A DNA stretch of 64,000 nt from an uncultured Candidatus Saccharibacteria bacterium (GCA_964559575.1 CAZLGQ010000001.1:7067-71066); one strand, 5' to 3'. Shown: positions 1,821 to 30,710, counted from the first letter of the stretch. Program-made: numbers and translations. The notes: generated by a model not told the origin, from the sequence alone.

Positions 1821-4800
1821 TTATATGATAATATTTATGATCCTGTTGGGAACAAAGAATACTTTTTTTATTTCTTTACCATTACACCATTTTGAAAAGA
1901 CTGGGGTTTTTTTAACCTCATCTAAAACGGTTTTTTCTTTAGAGTCTCTAGGTAGTTCTATACTACCTCTTGTTTTTCCATTTATTTGAAATATTATTTT
2001 TACATTTTCTTTTAATAGTACATCAGGGTTATATTTGGGCCAGTTTTTTTTATGAATTGAAGTTCTATTCCCAAGTGTTTCCCATATTTCTTCGGTTATA
2101 TGTGGAGCAAAAGGTGCTAAAAGAATTAAAAGATTTTCAAGATTTTCTTTTTTGATTTCTTCTTTTTCATCCATTAAATTAACCAAGATCATAAGAGAAG
2201 ATATTGCAGTATTGAAAGAAAAAGATTCAATATCTTCATTTACTTTTTTAATGGTTTTATGTAATGCGGTTTTTGTTTTTGTATCATTATTTTTATTTAA
2301 AGATACCTTTTTAGATAAATTCCAAACTTTTTCCAAAAATCTATGTGCTCCAACCGGACCATTGATATTCCAAGCTACTTCACCTTCAAAGGGTCCCATG
2401 AACATTATATATATTCTAGCCGCATCGGCTCCAAAATTCTTTATAATATCATCCGGACTTACTATATTTCCCCAACGTTTACTCATTTTTCTTCCATCCG
2501 GACCCAGTATAAGACCTTGATTTCTAAGAGCTATAAATGGTTCTTTTGTACTTACTAAATTTTCTTCGTATAAAAATTTATGCCAAAAACGTGAATATAT
2601 TAGATGCCTGGTGGCATGTTCAACACCTCCAACATAAAGATCAACCGGCATCCAGTATTTTTCCTTTTTCTGAGAAACAAATTCTTTATTATTACTAGGA
2701 TCAATAAAACGAAGATAATACCAACAGGATCCCGCCCATTGTGGCATGGTATTGGTTTCTCTTTTAGCTGAAGATCCACAGTTAGGACACTCTGTTTCAA
2801 CCCATGAAGAAATATTGGCTAAAGGGGATTCTCCGGTACCGGTAGGTTCATATGACTTAACTTCCGGAAGCTTAATTGGAAGATCTTTTTCCGGAACCGG
2901 AACTACTCCACATTTCTCACAATGAATTAAAGGTATAGGTTCACCCCAGTAACGTTGTCTGGAAAAGACCCAATCTTTTAATTTGTATGTAATTTTTTTC
3001 TTTCCTTCAACTTTCTTTCTTATCATCTCTTTTGCTTTTTCGCTTTCGATACCGGAGAGGTCTTCCGAGTTGGCTAGAACCCCACTTCCGATATAAGCAA
3101 AATCACCTTCTTTTTTTAACCATTCCATCCAGATGTCTATCTCTGCACAGGTGAGAGATTTAGCGGTCTCTTGGTTAAATTCAAGCCACTCTATATCATG
3201 TTTTTCCATTTCTACCTTTGAAATTTTCTTTCTCCTATTGCTTTTTAATTTGAAATGAACTGCAGTGGTATATGCTTTTCTGTTCTCATTTTTATGAGCT
3301 GCGTGATAATGGGCTTCCACTTGAAAAGGTGTCATCTTTTGAAATTCAAGATCAGTATAACCGGTTTCTTCTTCCACCTCTCTCTTTGCCGCTTTTACTA
3401 TATCCTCTCCTTCTTCCACTCCTCCGACTATAAATGTTCTCCAATTGAACTTTTTCCATTTTAAAAAGAGCATTTTACCGGAATCCGGATCTTCTACTAT
3501 TACATGAACAGTTTTCCTCTCCACCGTCTTTTTACCTTTTATGGGTGGAGTATATTTATCGATCCTTTTTGGATAGATGACATAATTTATTGGTAGGCCT
3601 TTTTTCGAGGCGAAATCAAAATCTCTCTCATCGTGAGCCGGAACCGCCATTATGGCCCCGGTTCCGTGGTTAGAAAGAACATAATCAGCGATCCATATAG
3701 GTATTTTTTTACCATTAACAGGATTTATTGCGTTTATTCCTTTTATTTCCACTCCTGTTTTATTTTTTTCCTCAGAAGTTCTTTGTAATTCTGTTTTTCT
3801 TTTTGTTTTATTTATATAGTTTTTAATTTCTTGTTTATTTTCTACAAAACTCCAAATTTCTTGGATCTTTTGATGCTCCGGAGCCACTACCATATAAGTA
3901 GATCCATAAAGCGTATCCGGTCTGGTAGTAAATACCGGAAGTGAGTCAGTTAAAAGTTTTTTAAGAGCCTTTTTAACCGGTAAAAGATCTTCTATGTCTT
4001 CTTTACTTCCTCCGTCTATATGTTTTCCGGTTTCTTTTGATCTATAAAGTCCTCTTAGGGGAAAATTTGGATTCAATTTTCCTTTTCTTTTAGTTGTCAG
4101 TATGACCTCTCTTTTATTTTTTTTATTTTTTATATCACCATTTGGGGTTGATAAAACCCAAACATCTTGCCAGTAAGCTTCCACTTCTCCTCCGTGTTTT
4201 TTAGCTATATTAGTATAATAACTAACCATCTTTTTACTTATCTGTTCTTTTGATAGTTTATTCTGCTCTTCTTCAGTTAAAACATTTCTTTTTACTTTTA
4301 TAGGATTATTTTTTTCACCCTTTATGTAAAAACCGGTATCTCCTGCCAGGATTGGTAAATTTGTTTTTTCTCTATAAGCCAAAGCTTTCTTTTCAGCATT
4401 TTTTAAAAGAGATACGCCTCCCTCAATAACTTCTATTTCTTTTATTCCTTTTTCCTTGGGAGTAAAAACTTTAATATCTAAACCTTCTGAGTTTAAAAGT
4501 TCCTGAACTCTTTCTTTTTTGCTTGGATTGTTACTTGCCAGAAGTATTTCTTTATATATACATACAGGAAAATCTATTTCCACACCTTGACTTTTCCCTA
4601 TCCAGTTTTTTTGAGAGTCTTTGATTGAATCCGGCCATTTATCTAAGAGATCAAGATCTTTTAAAAGGTCTTCGGCATAATCGGTTATCTTTAAAACCCA
4701 CTGTCTTACTGGCTTCTGTTCTACCTCAGAGTCACATCTCTCACAAAGACCATTTTCCAGATCTTCATTTGCTAGCCCAGTTTTACAAGACGGACACCAA

Positions 4801-5270
4801 TTTATTGGTTCGTTTGATTCAAACGCTAGACCTTTTTTAAACATCTGCAAAAATATCCACTGAGTCCATTTATAGTACTCCGGATCTGTGGTATTTATTT
4901 CACGTTTCCAGTCATAAGAAAGACCGATACTTGATAATTGTTTTTTATATCTTTCAACATTTTTTTTAACAACTTTTTTAGGATGAGTTTTATTTTTTAA
5001 AGCATATCCTTCAGCGGGTAAACCAAAAGCGTCCCATCCCATTGGGTGTAAGACATTAAAACCTTTCATCCTTAAATATCTTGAATAGGTATCTGTTGGA
5101 ACATAATTACGCAAATGACCCGCGTGAATACCTTCTCCTGAAGGATAAGGAAACATATTTAAAATGTATTTTTTTTCTTTTTTATTGCTTTCTTTGGTGT
5201 GATATAGTTTTGCTTTTTCCCACTTTTCCTGCCATTTCTTTTCTATTCTTTTATGATTATATTTCTTCAT
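1821..5270 (-). CDS. leuS: Leucyl-tRNA synthetase with two large inserted domains (ITPase/Ham1-like and Nudix)
   Basis: HIGH-type motif PYPSGEGIHAGHLRNY and KMSKS motif (RKMSKRWGN) are present. The editing-domain hallmark VFTTRPDTLYGSTYMVVAPEH and AVPAHDERDFDFA, and the C-terminal anticodon-binding region, are also present. At 1149 aa it is about 300 aa longer than canonical bacterial LeuRS. Confidence 0.9.
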   Translation of the reverse strand: MKKYNHKRIEKKWQEKWEKAKLYHTKESNKKEKKYILNMFPYPSGEGIHAGHLRNYVPTDTYSRYLRMKGFNVLHPMGWDAFGLPAEGYALKNKTHPKKVVKKNVERYKKQLSSIGLSYDWKREINTTDPEYYKWTQWIFLQMFKKGLAFESNEPINWCPSCKTGLANEDLENGLCERCDSEVEQKPVRQWVLKITDYAEDLLKDLDLLDKWPDSIKDSQKNWIGKSQGVEIDFPVCIYKEILLASNNPSKKERVQELLNSEGLDIKVFTPKEKGIKEIEVIEGGVSLLKNAEKKALAYREKTNLPILAGDTGFYIKGEKNNPIKVKRNVLTEEEQNKLSKEQISKKMVSYYTNIAKKHGGEVEAYWQDVWVLSTPNGDIKNKKNKREVILTTKRKGKLNPNFPLRGLYRSKETGKHIDGGSKEDIEDLLPVKKALKKLLTDSLPVFTTRPDTLYGSTYMVVAPEHQKIQEIWSFVENKQEIKNYINKTKRKTELQRTSEEKNKTGVEIKGINAINPVNGKKIPIWIADYVLSNHGTGAIMAVPAHDERDFDFASKKGLPINYVIYPKRIDKYTPPIKGKKTVERKTVHVIVEDPDSGKMLFLKWKKFNWRTFIVGGVEEGEDIVKAAKREVEEETGYTDLEFQKMTPFQVEAHYHAAHKNENRKAYTTAVHFKLKSNRRKKISKVEMEKHDIEWLEFNQETAKSLTCAEIDIWMEWLKKEGDFAYIGSGVLANSEDLSGIESEKAKEMIRKKVEGKKKITYKLKDWVFSRQRYWGEPIPLIHCEKCGVVPVPEKDLPIKLPEVKSYEPTGTGESPLANISSWVETECPNCGSSAKRETNTMPQWAGSCWYYLRFIDPSNNKEFVSQKKEKYWMPVDLYVGGVEHATRHLIYSRFWHKFLYEENLVSTKEPFIALRNQGLILGPDGRKMSKRWGNIVSPDDIIKNFGADAARIYIMFMGPFEGEVAWNINGPVGAHRFLEKVWNLSKKVSLNKNNDTKTKTALHKTIKKVNEDIESFSFNTAISSLMILVNLMDEKEEIKKENLENLLILLAPFAPHITEEIWETLGNRTSIHKKNWPKYNPDVLLKENVKIIFQINGKTRGSIELPRDSKEKTVLDEVKKTPVFSKWCNGKEIKKVFFVPNRIINIII

Positions 5271-5357
5271 GGATCTTAATTTTCATCAAATATCAATTTT
5301 AATATAATACATTAAAAAAGAGATTGTGACAAATTATTATAGTATTTAATAAAAACA

Positions 5358-5879
5358 TTATATCTCCCTGGAATCATAAGCCCAATGTAAAATAGCTTGA
5401 CGTTGTTTAGGTCTACATGTCAGATCCCCAAAACGACAGTTTTTACTTACTTGGGCAATATGTCTACTGATCTGTTTCCATCTTTTAATCTGTCTTTTAT
5501 CCTCTTCTAAAAGGCGTCTTCCTAAGTAATATCTACAGTACCACTGAAACCAACCTCTGGGATCATGTTTTTCATTTATCCATCCTTTTTTTCTCCAATA
5601 TGACAGAGGTTGGCTTGCATTTATCTTAAAATAATTAAGATCGGGATCATGTCTTTTGGAGCAAAGTTTGGCGTTTTTAAACCAAGATTTTGGAAACTCC
5701 TTTTTACAGTCAGTCATATATTTACCTCCAAACACCCCCATTTCAAGCATTTTTTTAGGAGAAAGATCAGGCGTAAAATCAGGATCAAAATTTTTACCTA
5801 TGGGTTCTGTTAATTTATAGGTATAACCTTTTTGCATCAGATCATTTACTTTTATTATTTTTTCTTTTTTATTGAACAT
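5358..5879 (-). CDS. Hypothetical protein (Trp/Arg-rich, conserved-looking C-terminal half)
   Basis: 173-aa ORF with native AT-rich codon usage. The only motif-like stretch is GWFQWYCRYYLGRR...DKRQIKRW, and no family was recognised. Confidence 0.35.
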   Translation of the reverse strand: MFNKKEKIIKVNDLMQKGYTYKLTEPIGKNFDPDFTPDLSPKKMLEMGVFGGKYMTDCKKEFPKSWFKNAKLCSKRHDPDLNYFKINASQPLSYWRKKGWINEKHDPRGWFQWYCRYYLGRRLLEEDKRQIKRWKQISRHIAQVSKNCRFGDLTCRPKQRQAILHWAYDSREI

Positions 5880-10698: not shown

Positions 10699-11955
10699 AT
10701 GGTTATGTCAAACAAAAATTACGACGTTATTGTGATTGGGGGTGGTCCCTCAGGAATGATGGCCGCAGGTAGAACCGCTGAGAGAGGTTTTAGAGTTTTA
10801 CTTTTAGAAAAAAACAAGAATTTAGGAAAAAAACTTTCATTAACCGGAGGTGGTAGATGTAACATATTAAATGCTGAAGAAAATGAAAAAGAATTAATTG
10901 AAAAATATGGAAAAAGTAAAAAATTTCTTCACTCTACTTTTTCTCAGTTTGGAATGAAAGATACTTGTAATTTTTTTGAAGAAAAAGGACTTCCGCTCGT
11001 AACAGAGGCAAGAAAAAGAGTGTTTCCAAAATCACAAAAATCATTGGATGTTATAAAAACAATGGAAGAATATATGGCCGAAAACGGAGTTGAGGTTAAA
11101 AGAGGACTGAATGTTAAAGGTTTTGAAATTAAAAAATGTCACATTGTTGGAGTTAAAACAGACTTTGGGCTTTATTATGCAAACAAGTTCATACTTTCTA
11201 CAGGTGGACTATCATATCCTAAAACCGGATCAACAGGAGAAGGTTTAAAATGGTTAAGAGATATAGGTCACACAATAAACTCACCGGAACCAAGTTTAGT
11301 ACCATTAACTGTTAAGGAGTCTTGGGTTAAAGAACTTTCCGGAGTTACTCTATCTTTTGCAAAAATAACTTTTGGGATCAATAAAACCAAAAAGGAAGGA
11401 AAGTTTAGTAAAACCGGAAAGATCCTATTCACTCACTTTGGATTATCGGGCCCTTTGATCCTAAATGCTTCAAGAGAAGTTAAAGAACTTTTAAAAAAAG
11501 GACTTGTAAAAACAGAAATAGATATGTATCCGGATACCGACATTAATGAAATCAGAAAAAATCTTCTTAATCTTTTTAACAGAAATAAAAATAAAAGTTT
11601 GAAAAATATTATAAAAGAAGTTACCCCTGAAGGTATGAGTGAAAATGTGGTTAAATTGGTCTCTTCTTCTCTTTTAGAAACCAAAGTTCATAATATAAGT
11701 AAAGAAAAAAGAGAAAACATCGCTGACATAATGAAAAGAATGCCTTTAACAGTTACCGGAACCATGGGGATGGATAGAGCAATAGCTTCTAACGGAGGTC
11801 TTGATCTTTCAGAAGTAGATACAAAAACAATGTCTTCAAAAATATATAAAAATCTTTATATCACAGGAGATATAATTGATATTGAAAGACCAAGTGGCGG
11901 TTTTTCATTACAGTGGTGTTGGACTAGTGGTTGGGTAGCCGGATCTAACACTTAA
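10699..11955 (+). CDS. NAD(P)/FAD-dependent oxidoreductase, HI0933/BaiN-like flavoprotein
   Basis: N-terminal Rossmann motif YDVIVIGGGPSGMMAAGRTAERG and GGGRCN. The 418-aa length is typical of the HI0933 family. Confidence 0.7.
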   Translation: MVMSNKNYDVIVIGGGPSGMMAAGRTAERGFRVLLLEKNKNLGKKLSLTGGGRCNILNAEENEKELIEKYGKSKKFLHSTFSQFGMKDTCNFFEEKGLPLVTEARKRVFPKSQKSLDVIKTMEEYMAENGVEVKRGLNVKGFEIKKCHIVGVKTDFGLYYANKFILSTGGLSYPKTGSTGEGLKWLRDIGHTINSPEPSLVPLTVKESWVKELSGVTLSFAKITFGINKTKKEGKFSKTGKILFTHFGLSGPLILNASREVKELLKKGLVKTEIDMYPDTDINEIRKNLLNLFNRNKNKSLKNIIKEVTPEGMSENVVKLVSSSLLETKVHNISKEKRENIADIMKRMPLTVTGTMGMDRAIASNGGLDLSEVDTKTMSSKIYKNLYITGDIIDIERPSGGFSLQWCWTSGWVAGSNT

Positions 11956-11984
11956 TTTATTAATAAAATATGTTAACATTAATT

Positions 11985-12140
11985 TAAAATAGCGTTCTGT
12001 ACAGTGAAGAGAGGTGAAAATCCTCCGCTATCGCGTAACGGTTAAAGTCCGACCCTGTGCAAAAAAAAACGCAAAACAAGGCTCGCGTAAAGCCATAAAT
12101 CTTTTTGATATTTGGCTTTTTAAAAGCCAAAATTTTATTA
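11985..12140 (+). ncRNA. Candidate cobalamin-riboswitch-like 5' leader of nrdDG, followed by an attenuator-like hairpin
   Basis: A GC-enriched leader in an AT-rich genome contains GGTGAAAATCC (the cobalamin-riboswitch GGTGnnAAnTCC core) preceded by GAAGAGA. An AAGTCCGACCCTGTGC segment resembles the B12 box (rAGYCMG...CC.GC). The hairpin TTGGCTTTTTAAAAGCCAA followed by a T-run at 12111..12140 lies just before the nrdD start. Confidence 0.35.
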
Positions 12141-12157
12141 TTAAATCAAGAAAACTT

Positions 12158-14242
12158 ATGTACTCAAAAATAAAAAAAAGAAACGGAAATGTAGTAACTT
12201 TTAATGAAGAAAAAATAACTCAAGCAATTATAAAAGCCGGAAAGGTCACTGAAGAATTCGGTCCAAAAGAGGCACATAAGTTAACAAAAAAAGTTATTGA
12301 AGTTTCAAAAGAAAAAATTAAAAATAAAATTCCAAAAGTAGAAGAGATTCAGGATGTTGTAGAGGATGTTCTTCTTAATTCAAAGTTTAAAAAAACAGCA
12401 AAAGCATATATTTTATATAGAGATCAACACAGACTCTTAAGGAATATAACAGACACTACTAATAATGGATTAGTAGATAACTATTTAGCCAAAGCCGATT
12501 GGAAAATAAAAGAAAATAGTAATATGTCCTATTCTCTTCAGGGGTTAAATAACTATATATCAAGTGAAATAAGTAAAAACTATTGGTTGGGTAAAATATA
12601 CCCTGAAAATATAAGAGAAGCCCATACAAATGGAGCTTTTCATATACATGATCTATCTATTCTTTCTGTCTACTGTGTTGGTTGGGATCTTTTAGATCTT
12701 TTAATAAATGGGTTTACGGGAGTAGAAGGAAAAGTCTCTAGCAAACCCCCTAAACATTTCAGATCAGCCTTGGGGCAAGTTACTAATTTTTTTTACACTC
12801 TCCAAGGAGAAGCTGCCGGAGCTCAAGCTTTTAGTAATTTTGATACACTCCTCGCTCCTTTTATTAGATATGATGGATTAGGTTACAAAGAAGTAAAACA
12901 AGCTATTCAAGAGTTTATTTTTAATGTAAATATACCTACACGAGTAGGATTTCAAACTCCTTTTACTAACGTAACTCTTGATTTATCGGTTCCTAAATAC
13001 TATGCAAATCAATCAATTGTAATCGGAGGTAAACCTCAAAAAGAAAAATATAAAGATTTTCAAGAAGAGATAAATATTTTTAATAAAGCATTATTAGAAG
13101 TAATGTCCGAAGGAGATGCAAATGGAAGAGTTTTTACATTTCCTATACCAACTTATAACATAACAGAAAATTTTAATTGGGATAATGAAATAAGTAAGCT
13201 TCTTTGGAAAGTAACTTCTAAATATGGACTTCCATACTTTTCAAACTTTATAAATTCCGATATGAATCCTGAAGATGCTCGTTCTATGTGTTGTCGTTTA
13301 AGGATAGATAACAGAGAACTGGAAAATAGAGGCGGAGGTCTCTTTGGTGCAAATCCTCTAACCGGTTCTATTGGTGTCGTTACTATAAATCTTCCTCGTA
13401 TAGGTTATATTTCAAAAAATAAGGAAGAATTTTTAGATAATCTTGATAATTTAATGTCAACAGCAAAAGACAGTTTGGAAATAAAAAGAAAGATTTTAGA
13501 AAGATTTACTGAAAATAATTTATACCCCTATACTAAATTTTATTTAAATAAAATAAAAGAACAGTATGGCAGTTACTGGAAAAATCATTTTTCAACTATA
13601 GGTATAGCCGGTATGAATGAAGCCGTGCAAAATCTATATGGTAAAAATATAGGAACATCTGAAGGACAGGAGTTTTCTAAAGAAGTTTTAGACTTTATGA
13701 GAAATGTGCTTGAAAAATTTCAAAAAGAAACGGGAAATAATTATAATCTAGAAGCCACCCCGGCAGAAGGAACACTTTTTAGGTTGGCTATTCTTGATAA
13801 AGAAAAATATCAAAATCCTGTATTTGCAAATGGTAAAGGTAAAGATGTAAAAACTCCTTTTTACACAAATTCAACTCATTTACCTGTTAACTTTACTGAC
13901 GATATTTTCGAAATGCTTGATCTTCAAGATGAACTCCAAACTAAATATACTGGAGGAACAGTTGCACATCTTTTTTTTGGTGAAAAGATAGAAGATGAAA
14001 ATTCAGTAAAAAATTTAATAAAAAAAATCTGTAAAGAATATCGTTTACCCTATTTTACAGTAAGCCCAACTTTTAGTGTTTGTCCTGAACATGGATATAT
14101 TTCCGGTGAAGTATATACTTGCGAAAAATGTAAAAATGAATGCGAAGTTTATTCAAGAATAGTTGGATACCTTAGACCTATAAATCAATGGAACGATGGA
14201 AAGAAATCAGAATTTGAAATAAGAAAAAACTATAAAAAATGA
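12158..14242 (+). CDS. nrdD: Anaerobic ribonucleoside-triphosphate reductase (class III RNR)
   Basis: N-terminal ATP-cone (KIKKRNGNVVTFNEEKITQAIIKAG), C-terminal Zn site (CPEHGYISGEVYTCEKCKNEC) and glycyl-radical motif RIVGYLRP. Start moved to the internal ATG at 12158, since the 48 upstream codons of the track ORF cover the structured leader. Confidence 0.85.
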   Translation: MYSKIKKRNGNVVTFNEEKITQAIIKAGKVTEEFGPKEAHKLTKKVIEVSKEKIKNKIPKVEEIQDVVEDVLLNSKFKKTAKAYILYRDQHRLLRNITDTTNNGLVDNYLAKADWKIKENSNMSYSLQGLNNYISSEISKNYWLGKIYPENIREAHTNGAFHIHDLSILSVYCVGWDLLDLLINGFTGVEGKVSSKPPKHFRSALGQVTNFFYTLQGEAAGAQAFSNFDTLLAPFIRYDGLGYKEVKQAIQEFIFNVNIPTRVGFQTPFTNVTLDLSVPKYYANQSIVIGGKPQKEKYKDFQEEINIFNKALLEVMSEGDANGRVFTFPIPTYNITENFNWDNEISKLLWKVTSKYGLPYFSNFINSDMNPEDARSMCCRLRIDNRELENRGGGLFGANPLTGSIGVVTINLPRIGYISKNKEEFLDNLDNLMSTAKDSLEIKRKILERFTENNLYPYTKFYLNKIKEQYGSYWKNHFSTIGIAGMNEAVQNLYGKNIGTSEGQEFSKEVLDFMRNVLEKFQKETGNNYNLEATPAEGTLFRLAILDKEKYQNPVFANGKGKDVKTPFYTNSTHLPVNFTDDIFEMLDLQDELQTKYTGGTVAHLFFGEKIEDENSVKNLIKKICKEYRLPYFTVSPTFSVCPEHGYISGEVYTCEKCKNECEVYSRIVGYLRPINQWNDGKKSEFEIRKNYKK

Positions 14243-14925
14243 AAATAGGAGGATTACATAAATTTTCCTTAATTAACTATCCTGAAAAAACTTCTGCCGT
14301 TATATTTACCATAGGATGTAATTTTCGTTGCAGTTACTGTCATAATTTGAAACTTGTATTTCCTAATAAATATTCTGAAGAAATTTCAATTGAAGAAATA
14401 TTAAACTTTTTAAAAAGTAGACAGAATAAACTGGATGCCGTTGTTATTAGTGGAGGAGAGCCTACAGAACATTCAGATCTGTTAAATTTCATTTCTGATA
14501 TCAAAGAATTGGGTTTTTTAATTAAGCTTGATACCAACGGAAGTAATCCAAATGTCTTACAAGAGATCATAAAAAATAACTTGATCAACTATATAGCAAT
14601 GGATATAAAAGCCCCTATTAAAAAACATCAAAAAGTAACAAGAAGTTTAATAGATTTTAAAAAAATAAAAGAAAGTATAAATATAATAATGAGATCTGAA
14701 ATAGAATACGAATTTAGAACTACAGTGGTAAAAGAATTAATTAATAGTGAGGATCTTATTTATTTAGCAAAAATGATATACGGAGCTGAAAAATACTTTT
14801 TACAAACTTTCAATTTTTCAAAATCAGATTTAGGATCCTTAAATTTTTCCTCTTATTCTAAAGAGGAAATGGAAAAAATGGCTAAAAATTTAAGGAAATA
14901 TGTTAAAGAATGTAAAGTTAGGTAA
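14239..14925 (+). CDS. nrdG: Anaerobic ribonucleoside-triphosphate reductase activating protein (radical SAM)
   Basis: CNFRCSYCHN radical-SAM CxxxCxxC motif. Overlaps the nrdD stop by 4 nt. Confidence 0.8.
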   Translation: MKIGGLHKFSLINYPEKTSAVIFTIGCNFRCSYCHNLKLVFPNKYSEEISIEEILNFLKSRQNKLDAVVISGGEPTEHSDLLNFISDIKELGFLIKLDTNGSNPNVLQEIIKNNLINYIAMDIKAPIKKHQKVTRSLIDFKKIKESINIIMRSEIEYEFRTTVVKELINSEDLIYLAKMIYGAEKYFLQTFNFSKSDLGSLNFSSYSKEEMEKMAKNLRKYVKECKVR

Positions 14926-15997
14926 TACCCACTTTCTTTTTTATTGAATTTAAAAAATGTTTATTCTTAAAATATCTTTGTAAAAGATATAAATAATAAA
15001 ATAAACTTTTACCAATAAGATCAAAAAAGGGATAACTTACATAGTATCCTCCAAATCCTTGTTTGAATTTTGAAAAACCTTGCCAGTCTCCATTTTCTTT
15101 TTTAGTCACAGCTCCAAAATTAGCTTTTGTCATTTTTAATTTTTTTGATCTTTTTATAGCCTCCCAACGTAATAGATAGGAAGATCTTAAGTTTCTACCC
15201 TCTTCTAGAACACCAGAAAAAAGAAAAGAGGCCGTTTTTTCAGATAACAAAACAAAATTAACTGCCACCGGTTTTCTTTTATAATAAGCTATAGCTAAAA
15301 AAGAACTATTTCTTTTTTCACTTTCTTCAAAAATTTTACAGTAATAACTTTTAGGGTATATGAAAAAATTATTTTTTTCAGCACTTTTTTTAATAATATT
15401 AAAAAAAGTATTGATCTTTTTAGTTGGTTTTTCAAATATTCTTATCTTTATATCATTTTTTTCAGCCTTCCTTATATTATATCTTGTTTTTGGATGCATT
15501 TCGGATAAAATCTCATCTTCTGTTTTTTTAATATCAACAAACCAAAGTAACTCGGGTTGAAAATATCCGGCGTGAGAAAAGGCTTTTCGTGGAGAATTAA
15601 AATATTTATGTATAGTATCTATATCTTTTTCAGTTAAACCTTCTTTATTATTAAAAGAAAATTGAGTTCTTGTAAAAATAGCTTTTTCTTCTTTTGTTTT
15701 TTTCTTTAAACAAAGATATAAATTAAGCATTCTATCTTTATTAAGATCACTTAAAAAAACCGGACCGTAAGGAATATAAAGTATCTTTAAACCAAAATTT
15801 ATTTTTAATATAAAAACCTGAAAAAACGCAACTGGTTTTTTATTTTCCATAAAAATAAAATGTCTGACCGGAGAGTTGTTTTTTTCTTGGATTTTGGAGT
15901 ATAAGATCTCTTGAGTAAACAAGGTTTCACTACCCTTATAAAGATCGGAATACTGATCAGCTTTCAACTCTATTAAGTTGTAAGCACTATCCTTCAT
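14918..15997 (-). CDS. FemAB-family-like protein (possible peptidoglycan interpeptide-bridge aminoacyltransferase), tentative
   Basis: 359-aa ORF whose size and sequence feel resemble the FemABX family. No diagnostic motif was confirmed. Confidence 0.3.
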   Translation of the reverse strand: MKDSAYNLIELKADQYSDLYKGSETLFTQEILYSKIQEKNNSPVRHFIFMENKKPVAFFQVFILKINFGLKILYIPYGPVFLSDLNKDRMLNLYLCLKKKTKEEKAIFTRTQFSFNNKEGLTEKDIDTIHKYFNSPRKAFSHAGYFQPELLWFVDIKKTEDEILSEMHPKTRYNIRKAEKNDIKIRIFEKPTKKINTFFNIIKKSAEKNNFFIYPKSYYCKIFEESEKRNSSFLAIAYYKRKPVAVNFVLLSEKTASFLFSGVLEEGRNLRSSYLLRWEAIKRSKKLKMTKANFGAVTKKENGDWQGFSKFKQGFGGYYVSYPFFDLIGKSLFYYLYLLQRYFKNKHFLNSIKKKVGIT

Positions 15998-26923: not shown

Positions 26924-26997
26924 TCTGGGGTAGCTCAATGGTAGAGCTCTCGACTGTTAATCGAGTGGTTGTGGGTTCGAATCCCACCCCCAGAGCC
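26924..26997 (+). tRNA. tRNA-Asn (anticodon GTT)
   Basis: Cloverleaf with acceptor stem TCTGGGG/CCCCAGA, D-arm GCTCAATGGTAGAGC, anticodon stem-loop CTCGA-CTGTTAA-TCGAG (GTT) and T-arm GTGGGTTCGAATCCCAC. A discriminator G and CC follow. The 3' A of CCA is not encoded. Confidence 0.85.
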
Positions 26998-29545: not shown

Positions 29546-30619
29546 ATGTATAACCGTATAGTAATAAAAGTTGGTACCAAGGTACTCTCCAATGATTTTA
29601 ATAGGCTTGATCTCACCGTTTTAAAACATTTAGTTAAACAGATCAACTTAATAAAAAATAAAGGAACCGAAGTTGTTTTGGTTACATCAGGTGCTGTAGG
29701 AGCCGGTAGAGATTTAATAAACCTTAAAGATATTGAAAAAATAGCAGAAAAACAGATCCTTTCCTCTATAGGTCAGGTTAAATTAATGAATTTTTATTCA
29801 AAATATTTTGCAGAGTATGATCAATTATGTGCTCAAGTATTGGCTACCAAAGAAGACTTTAGAGATAGAAAACATTACTTTAATATGAGAACCTGTTTTA
29901 ATAATCTATTAAAAAGTGGTGTCATTCCGGTAGTAAATGAAAATGATGTTATAGCTACTACAGAACTTCTCTTTACCGATAACGATGAATTAGCAGGTCT
30001 TGTAGCATCCTTACTAAACGCTGATGCAGTAATAATTCTTACAAGTGTTGAAGGTTTTCTAACAGGTGACCCTGAAGATCCCAATTCTAAAATCATTTCT
30101 GAAATTGATTTTAATAAAATTAAAAATATTGAAAAATTTATTTCTAACGAAAAAACTACCTTGGGACGTGGAGGTATGCTTACTAAATTTAATATAGCAA
30201 AAAAACTAACCATTCAGGGTATTACCGTCTTATTTGCTAACGGTAAAAGAAAAAATGTTTTAACTGACATATTTAATAATAAAAAGATCGGAACCAAATT
30301 TACTACTTCAAAAAAATCATCTTCTATCAAAAGACGTCTTGCTTACTCGGAAGGATTAACCAAAGGAATGGTTAAAATAGACAAACAGGCTGTAAACCTT
30401 TTACGTTCTAAAGAAAACATCATCAGCTTATTGCCTATAGGGGTAATAGATATTCATGGTGATTTTTATAAAGGTGATATTATTGAAATCGTAAGTGAAA
30501 AAAAAGAAAAAATAGGTTTTGGGATAACTCAGTACGATTCTCAAAAAGCCAAAGATCTAATAAAAACTAAAAATAAAAAACCGATCATTCATTATAACTA
30601 TATGTTCATTAATATTTAG
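29546..30619 (+). CDS. proB: Glutamate 5-kinase with C-terminal PUA domain
   Basis: IVIKVGTKVLS, VLVTSGAVGAG and NENDV amino-acid-kinase motifs, plus a C-terminal PUA-like region (MVKIDKQAVNLL...GDIIEIVSEK). Confidence 0.85.
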   Translation: MYNRIVIKVGTKVLSNDFNRLDLTVLKHLVKQINLIKNKGTEVVLVTSGAVGAGRDLINLKDIEKIAEKQILSSIGQVKLMNFYSKYFAEYDQLCAQVLATKEDFRDRKHYFNMRTCFNNLLKSGVIPVVNENDVIATTELLFTDNDELAGLVASLLNADAVIILTSVEGFLTGDPEDPNSKIISEIDFNKIKNIEKFISNEKTTLGRGGMLTKFNIAKKLTIQGITVLFANGKRKNVLTDIFNNKKIGTKFTTSKKSSSIKRRLAYSEGLTKGMVKIDKQAVNLLRSKENIISLLPIGVIDIHGDFYKGDIIEIVSEKKEKIGFGITQYDSQKAKDLIKTKNKKPIIHYNYMFINI

Positions 30620-30660
30620 AATATATCTAAATATTAAATTAATTTTATTTAAAAAATTAA

Positions 30661-30682
30661 AGGGGAGTTTAAAACCTCCCCT
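30661..30682 (-). terminator. Rho-independent terminator hairpin (acts mainly on the minus strand for the Zn-ribbon gene pair)
   Basis: AGGGGAG-TTTAAAAC-CTCCCCT perfect 7-bp GC-rich stem. On the minus strand it is followed by a T-rich run, and it lies about 29 nt downstream of the stop of the 30711..30974 ORF. Confidence 0.45.
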
Positions 30683-30710
30683 TTATGATCGTTCCGATCG
30701 ACATAACTAA

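Follow-up and report, generated by a model that had tools for sequence, protein, structure and literature searches.

A probable compact class-II cobalamin riboswitch with a terminator platform upstream of nrdDG in an uncultured bacterium

The leader of the nrdDG operon at positions 11992–12142 (+ strand) of the 64,000-nt stretch of DNA analysed here (the window) is very probably a class-II cobalamin riboswitch (Cbl-II, Rfam clan CL00101) that serves nrdDG as a transcriptional OFF switch. This reading is supported by the match of the aptamer to a curated family, by covariation of the helices and of the loops L5 and L13, by a three-way competition between the P13 hairpin, an antiterminator and a terminator, and by a family regulon of the B12 type. 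Judged from its sequence, the leader would bind cobalamin, and repression in the presence of cobalamin is the most likely direction of regulation. A preliminary description of the same DNA had suggested that the leader is a divergent cobalamin riboswitch whose platform is a terminator, a reading which the full-length match to RF01689 (E = 7.2e-05 window-wide) supports; what it had not seen are P13, the hairpin that takes part in the kissing loop, and the antiterminator, the parts that link the aptamer to the terminator.

The gene downstream of the leader, nrdD (12158–14242, +), encodes a class III anaerobic ribonucleoside-triphosphate reductase of 694 aa with an N-terminal ATP-cone (Pfam NRDD 674 bits, ATP-cone 75 bits; NCBIfam NF006126 1059.6 bits) and is followed by nrdG (14239–14925, +) for the radical-SAM activating enzyme (TIGR02495 NrdG2, 220.5 bits), the start of which overlaps the nrdD stop by 4 nt; these matches confirm the two genes as initially named. 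The start codon of nrdD is the ATG at 12158, and a long mechanical open reading frame from GTG 12014 that crosses the aptamer is an artefact, as the N-termini of relatives align to the methionine at 12158. The intergenic leader comprises 202 nt (11956–12157) and not the approximately 170 nt first estimated, but is G+C-enriched as had been noted, with 0.45 at 12000–12099 versus 0.31 for the whole window. The operon is flanked upstream by a gene for an HI0933-like flavoprotein of the aminoacetone-oxidase family (10699–11955, +) and downstream by a convergent gene for a FemAB-family peptidyltransferase (14918–15997, −), which overlaps the end of nrdG by 8 nt; neither is kept beside nrdDG in relatives. 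A promoter scan upstream of P1 gave nothing convincing. A perfect palindrome of 10 bp, ATGTTAACAT (11970–11979), is located where the promoter is presumed, approximately 12 nt before P1; it is unlike an NrdR box and may have an operator or promoter function or be a chance occurrence in AT-rich DNA.

In the Rfam search that the preliminary description had suggested, the AdoCbl-II model RF01689 aligns over its full length (model positions 1–81) to 11994–12065 with 36.2 bits, equivalent to E = 3.9e-07 for the leader alone and E = 7.2e-05 for both strands of the whole window and 4227 families. The match is significant, though 0.3 bits short of the curated gathering score of 36.5 bits. A standard Rfam scan of the window at gathering thresholds returns the tRNA only (26924–26995, +, 75.7 bits), the sole match in the window above a gathering score; this silence does not equal absence, as a permissive scan shows the near-threshold match. 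In the RF01689 alignment the outer helix contains mismatches and the 7-nt J1/3 (model positions 7–13) is deleted, and it is this deletion together with an A-run displacing the 3′ strand of P1 that keeps the score below the threshold. Within the window RF01689 outscores RF01482, the own score of which was not displayed, and a permissive scan with all families found no second cobalamin-clan match in the 64 kb. Matches of the leader to mir-4679, SNORA13, Histone3 and U7 (E = 2–9, some on the minus strand) concern eukaryotic families and were dismissed as noise driven by the terminator hairpin. Elsewhere in the window, a weak and probably fortuitous match to the sraA sRNA family lies at 30602–30693 (+; 35.5 bits, E = 0.094, the gathering score being 56).

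In the predicted aptamer fold, P3 to P6 meet in a four-way junction, with P1 as the closing helix. The single-sequence fold forms P1 from GCGTT (11992–11996, +) and AACGC (12068–12072, +), and inspection combined with a heuristic helix search indicates that this helix covaries, with AAACGG/CCGTTT, GCGG/CCGC, AGCGA/TCGCT and GAAGCGA/TCGCTTT in relatives. On the 5′ side only 1–2 nt separate P1 from P3 in the window, and among 69 distinct members scored, 55 likewise have a J1/3 of 0–2 nt; the 3′ strands of P3 and P1 are separated by a 7-nt A-run (12061–12067, +), where close relatives have a hairpin of 13–17 nt. P3, taken from the cmscan alignment, pairs GTACAG (11999–12004) with CTGTGC (12055–12060, both +) and may gain a seventh pair between T11998 and A12061; five of its six pairs change on both sides among 65 distinct sequences, and RNAalifold recovers the helix from a plain MAFFT alignment. 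The joining segment J3/4, TGAAGA (12005–12010, +), is the counterpart of the GGGAAA/UGGAAG core element; GTGAAG at this site is invariant in the four closest leaders and aligns to J3/4 of both the RF01689 and the RF01482 model. The purine-rich GAAGAGA, which had been placed in the position of the AGGGAA element, is indeed present at 12006–12012 but belongs in part to J3/4 (UGAAGA) and in part to the 5′ strand of P4.

P4 (GAGG/CCTC, 12011–12014 and 12022–12025, +) encloses the 7-nt loop L4, TGAAAAT, and is paired in 100% of the sequences, with compensatory changes in three of its four pairs, for example CCAG/CTGG, AGGG/CCCT and CCGG/CCGG. P5 (TA/TA, 12029–12030 and 12036–12037, +) carries the loop L5, TCGCG (12031–12035), the aptamer half of the kissing loop, and its inner pair alternates between A-T and G-C (10 A-U versus 54 G-C). 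P6 (CGG/CCG, 12039–12041 and 12049–12051, +), aligned to P6 of the model, has a 7-nt loop L6, TTAAAGT, and is without the P7–P11 extension; it is invariant in all 65 distinct sequences and hence uninformative for covariation. The B12-box region (12045–12060, +) comprises the 3′ part of L6, the 3′ strand of P6, J6/3 (ACC, 12052–12054, +) and the 3′ strand of P3, and the B12-box-like segment AAGTCCGACCCTGTGC, recognized early on at these positions, aligns to the RF01689 consensus AaAGUCcGAGcGCCaC.

The core GGTGAAAATCC quoted in the preliminary description is found at 12013–12023, corresponding to the P4/L4 region. The 12-nt core consensus as written there, GGTGnnAAnTCC, has 0 literal matches, and it is an 11-nt form, GGTGNNAANCC, that does match. 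With three occurrences in the window versus 0.7 expected, GGTGNNAANCC alone is not diagnostic; a composite core pattern has one match in the window versus none in 100 shuffles.

A scan of species-representative genomes for NrdD yielded 80 loci, the closest of which stem from a Gottesmanbacteria MAG (L001, 74%), a Chloroflexi MAG (L002, 76%) and a Berkelbacteria MAG (L003, 73%). These three and two Anaerolineae (L006 and L009) possess an alignable leader just upstream of nrdD, at a distance of 57–70 nt; the other 75 of the 80 NrdD loci, mostly from Syntrophales, are without one. As nrdG follows nrdD in all five loci, with upstream genes unrelated to those of the window and no flavoprotein among them, the leader belongs to nrdDG. 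In a Saccharibacteria nrdD locus (L004) the riboswitch is absent and an AT-rich palindromic stretch, ACATACTATATATAGTAT, which presumably resembles an NrdR box, is located upstream of nrdD at about 2915–2935; this suggests that nrdD is controlled differently there.

A covariance model built from four leaders detects exactly one copy in the window, with 119 bits. A metagenome scan used the pattern that had no match in the 100 window shuffles; it fixes junction nucleotides only, among them AAGTCCGA of the B12-box region, whereas the stems and the two candidate kissing loops may vary. The scan retrieved 79 fragments with 80 copies, all of which were confirmed by the covariance model (E ≤ 4e-8). 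On 65 distinct sequences, 97.2% of the cells are paired versus 80.7% in column shuffles and 30–56% with partners slid by 1–3 columns, percentages that are somewhat inflated by an alignment fitted to its own model. Fourteen pairs have changed on both sides (covariation score 0.374 versus 0.111), and P3, P4, P5 and P13 all covary. From a plain, unfitted MAFFT alignment of 18 full leaders, RNAalifold recovers P3, P4, P6 and the terminator. It also pairs the GUGAAG of J3/4 with the region of L5 and shifts P13, two proposals that were rejected as the columns concerned are all invariant and give no support, while the model-aligned P5 and P13 covary.

When 19 relatives were searched with Rfam, 15 matches passed RF01689 (37.4–48.1 bits) and L003 passed RF01482 (51.9 versus 50); L001, L100 and L159 had no cobalamin-clan match at the gathering threshold. 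The copy in the window thus belongs to a curated family, with a score slightly under its threshold. The preliminary description had named as grounds against its proposal a lack of Rfam significance and a lack of conservation in orthologous leaders, neither of which was found, as the element is kept with compensatory changes before nrdDG in L001, L002, L003, L006 and L009 and in the 80 metagenome copies.

These data also bear on the view that there is no riboswitch at all, in which the hairpin at 12111–12131 would serve to terminate the flavoprotein gene upstream, with motifs that arose by chance in a G+C-richer spacer. Such a view can draw on the threefold occurrence of GGTGNNAANCC versus 0.7 expected and on the formally sub-threshold Rfam score, but is extremely improbable in light of the whole-window E-value of 7.2e-05, the lack of composite-pattern matches in 100 shuffles, the compensatory changes in leaders of loci that have no flavoprotein gene, and the position of the hairpin 156 nt past the flavoprotein stop codon.

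The riboswitch reading extends beyond the aptamer. The hairpin P13 (GGCT/AGCC, 12080–12094, +), located 8 nt after P1, presents the loop L13, CGCGTAA (12084–12090), as the expression-platform half of the kissing loop, and all four P13 pairs display compensatory changes. The CGCG of L13 (12084–12087) is complementary to UCGCG in L5 (12031–12035), and in 66 distinct leaders five L5 types each come with a complementary L13 type: UCGCG with CGCG in 47 of 49 distinct leaders, UCGUG with CACG in L101, UUGCG with CGCAA in L089, UGCCG with CG(A)GCA in 8 of 8 (a loop type present in 0 of the 49 leaders of the main type), and UCCCG with CG(N)GGA, the motif being present in 4 of 4 and in 2 of 4 under a strict hairpin definition. 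A kissing loop between L5 and L13 is common to all classes of cobalamin riboswitches (PMC7367189).

Downstream of P13, a terminator scan identifies an intrinsic terminator at 12111–12142 (+), consisting of a 9-bp stem (12111–12131), TTTGGCTTT-TTA-AAAGCCAAA, with three G-C pairs, and the T-rich tail ATTTTATTATT. The tail reads ATTTTATTA, and its U-tract is interrupted (AUUUUAUUAUU) and weaker than the UUUUUU of relatives. The hairpin was originally delimited as TTGGCTTTT-TA-AAAGCCAA (12112–12130) followed by the T-run ATTTTATTATT; both are there, but not directly before the start codon, as the stem ends 27 nt and the T-rich tail 16 nt before the ATG. A helix ACTTGGC...GCCAAGT with its T-run is kept in 18 aligned leaders. 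The segment AAAGCCA (12089–12095), the 3′ strand of P13, has a second possible partner in the 5′ strand of the terminator, where TGGCTTT (12113–12119) can pair with it to form an antiterminator (12089–12119, +) that encloses a small hairpin ATC/GAT. Folding the leader by minimum free energy yields the antiterminator. For a nascent RNA that extends as far as the terminator loop, this state has −9.8 kcal/mol versus −4.9 kcal/mol with P13 forced, and is favoured by 4.9 kcal/mol; in the full platform it has −16.8 versus −13.8 kcal/mol for P13 plus terminator, and is favoured by 3.0 kcal/mol. A terminator follows P13 in 41 of 67 distinct leaders, approximately 35 of which show 5–9 antiterminator pairs in the nascent fold; these counts are approximate, because the automatic finders for P13, terminator and P1 are heuristic and misassign some distant members (e.g. 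L101 and L137). In several leaders the antiterminator also takes up L13 nucleotides, as in L002, where GCGUCAAG pairs with CUUGGCGC, so that kissing loop and antitermination compete directly.

On this basis, the nascent RNA would, without ligand, form the antiterminator between AAAGCCA (12089–12095) and UGGCUUU (12113–12119), and transcription would read through into nrdD. Read-through would be the default unless P13 gains a few kcal/mol, which a ligand-stabilised kissing loop would supply. With cobalamin bound, L5 (UCGCG) would kiss L13 (CGCG) of P13 (12080–12094) and the closed P13 would withhold its own 3′ strand from the antiterminator, upon which the freed UUUGGCUUU would pair with AAAGCCAAA and the resulting terminator with its U-tract would end transcription 16–27 nt before the start codon.

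The same aptamer might alternatively exert translational control, with a sequestrator of the ribosome-binding site in place of the terminator. This mode does exist in the family, as members upstream of TonB-receptor-type genes carry GGAGG or GGA in the 3′ strand of P13, 5–9 nt before the ATG (L082, L109, L143, L110 and L089); they represent this switch in a translational form. The P13 of the window has its end 63 nt away from the ATG, and the pre-ATG region AAATCAAGAAAACTT, without a clear Shine-Dalgarno sequence, is unpaired in every predicted state; the distance of P13 and the unpaired state of this region make translational control unlikely here, and the stem-loop with its T-run is conserved in nrdD-type leaders but absent from the translational members. 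In contrast to those members, in which P13 itself hides the ribosome-binding site, the transcriptional switch proposed for the window has as its platform a terminator operated via an antiterminator, that is, a stem-loop and U-tract mutually exclusive with an antiterminator, albeit with an interrupted U-tract.

With respect to classification, the leader possesses the core of clan CL00101, namely the P3–P6 junction with conserved J3/4, L4, L6 and the B12 box in J6/3 (as seen in the RF01689 alignment, the covariation and RNAalifold), a kissing loop between L5 and L13, and downstream genes that are cobalamin-related or code for B12-independent isozymes; the RF01689 gathering score is missed, with 36.2 versus 36.5. 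It conforms to the definition of Cbl-II by the lack of a P2 arm and of a long P7–P11 extension, P6 being a 3-bp stem with a 7-nt loop (PMC7367189). RF01689, formerly named AdoCbl-variant, covers Cbl-IIa riboswitches, env8 among them (PDB 4FRN/4FRG, cited in PMC7367189). With RF01689/Cbl-IIa the leader shares the four-way junction P3–P6, the 7-nt loops L4 and L6, a P6 with a simple loop and no P7–P11, the missing P2 arm, the B12 box, and an L5 that kisses L13 of a downstream hairpin. Yet the 7-nt J1/3 bulge, which in Cbl-IIa forms a T-loop beside the ligand, is missing in the window, such that of the features of the HyCbl/MeCbl-selective Cbl-IIa the P6 loop is present and the J1/3 T-loop absent. 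Like RF01482 (AdoCbl, a Cbl-IIb-like model), the leader has a nearly continuous P1–P3 helix, a corresponding J3/4 (UGGAAGU in the model, UGAAGA in the window) and a P13 hairpin, which in the model is included with a loop starting (U)CG; the 15-nt P6 extension of the model has no counterpart (0 nt in L003). Of the features of the AdoCbl-selective Cbl-IIb, the short J1/3 is thus present and the P6 hairpin extension absent, yet L003 passes RF01482. As the subclass is ambiguous, with a Cbl-IIa-like P6 and a Cbl-IIb-like J1/3, the form sensed may be AdoCbl or MeCbl/HyCbl.

Small peripheral changes have been reported to shift cobalamin selectivity (PMC7367189), and with a periphery that fits neither curated subclass, lacking both the J1/3 T-loop of Cbl-IIa and the short P6 hairpin extension of Cbl-IIb/RF01482, the leader might be considered a cobalamin-like fold with a changed ligand or a variant that senses some corrinoid outside the usual coenzyme forms. 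This is very unlikely, though, given the conserved core junctions and B12 box and a sub-family regulon that is typically B12 (BtuB-like receptors, CbiZ and B12-independent reductases). A cobalamin-sensing leader would also be compatible with the more far-reaching but rather doubtful proposal that the nrdD-associated leaders of CPR bacteria and Chloroflexi constitute a distinct minimal class-II sub-type with a corrinoid selectivity unlike that of Cbl-IIa and Cbl-IIb. Such a sub-type may be marked by the lack of the J1/3 T-loop and of the P6 extension, by an L13-coupled terminator, and by a hairpin or A-run that is facultative and separates the 3′ strand of P3 from that of P1; its selectivity would, if the sub-type holds true, for example be promiscuous or tuned to scavenged corrinoids. 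On this proposal, and if the host has a reduced genome unable to make B12, the cell would also monitor external corrinoid to choose between reductases.

The genes downstream of the 80 metagenome copies include approximately 28 nrdD genes, approximately 19 class I operons (with nrdA, nrdB or ATP-cone-NrdB first), seven TonB-dependent receptors (BtuB-like) and four DUF4430 proteins, besides CbiZ, an ECF S-component, DUF4198 and some unknowns, which is the set expected for cobalamin control. Several of the fragments show arrangements of their own. On one 3.5-kb fragment (L108), tandem class-II copies (3254–3373 and 1879–1997, both −) precede a SAM-methyltransferase-like gene and a class I nrdA, respectively. 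On L123, a long classical RF00174 riboswitch (5178–5362, +, 79.1 bits) is positioned divergently, back-to-back with the class-II copy (4933–5043, −) that precedes an ATP-cone-NrdB gene, which places two riboswitch classes in one intergenic neighbourhood. There, as on L120, L133, L136 and L117, the first gene encodes an NrdB with an N-terminal ATP-cone (420–437 aa) and is followed by a divergent NrdA-like barrel with 22–25% identity to the NrdA of L102. A 428-aa protein without a Pfam match at 1e-5 is encoded by the first gene on L112 (13067–14350, −) and also on L094 and L139, where the riboswitch carries the variant kissing loop UGCCG/CGAGCA; the gene is a candidate for an uncharacterised B12-related function. 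On L142 and L147 the first genes after the riboswitch are unannotated.

Comparative genomics by Vitreschak, Rodionov and colleagues reportedly placed cobalamin riboswitches before B12-independent ribonucleotide reductase operons already in 2003. In Propionibacterium acnes, nrdDG and nrdAB are each preceded by an annotated cobalamin riboswitch, nrdJ is also present as the B12-dependent alternative, and RNA-seq shows premature termination before nrdAB (PMC3848588). The window would resemble P. acnes in the repression of a B12-independent isozyme by B12, but differs from it in the compact class-II aptamer, in that an nrdJ partner was not found within the available 64 kb, and in the host lineage, as the closest NrdD proteins are from CPR bacteria and Chloroflexi; these NrdD relatives, the one source for the assignment, suggest a CPR/Chloroflexi-like host. 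A limited literature search found no published cobalamin riboswitch in CPR bacteria.

Physiologically, the B12-independent, oxygen-sensitive reductase would be made only when corrinoid is scarce, from which a B12-dependent reductase (NrdJ) or some equivalent route is to be expected elsewhere in the genome. No B12-dependent reductase, NrdJ/NrdA barrel (by tblastn) or corrinoid transporter was found in the 64-kb window, nor was an NrdJ/NrdA barrel found by tblastn in the nrdD loci of the five relatives; with no NrdJ, transporter or second cobalamin element found in the 64 kb, the physiological logic is not closed within the window.

The leader in the window leaves the current understanding of cobalamin riboswitches unchanged; it is a riboswitch of a known kind, the novelty of which is limited to its membership in the family, its minimal periphery and its probable host lineage. 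A gathering-threshold scan nevertheless loses a real riboswitch by 0.3 bits, and loses L001, L100 and L159 too, which suggests an under-calling of compact class-II switches in uncultured lineages rich in AT. Natural compensatory L5–L13 variants are available within the family, in which a single aptamer is joined to either of two platforms, termination or sequestration of the ribosome-binding site. The organism itself apparently responds to corrinoids by turning off its B12-independent anaerobic reductase, which predicts a corrinoid uptake route and a B12-dependent reductase elsewhere in the genome.
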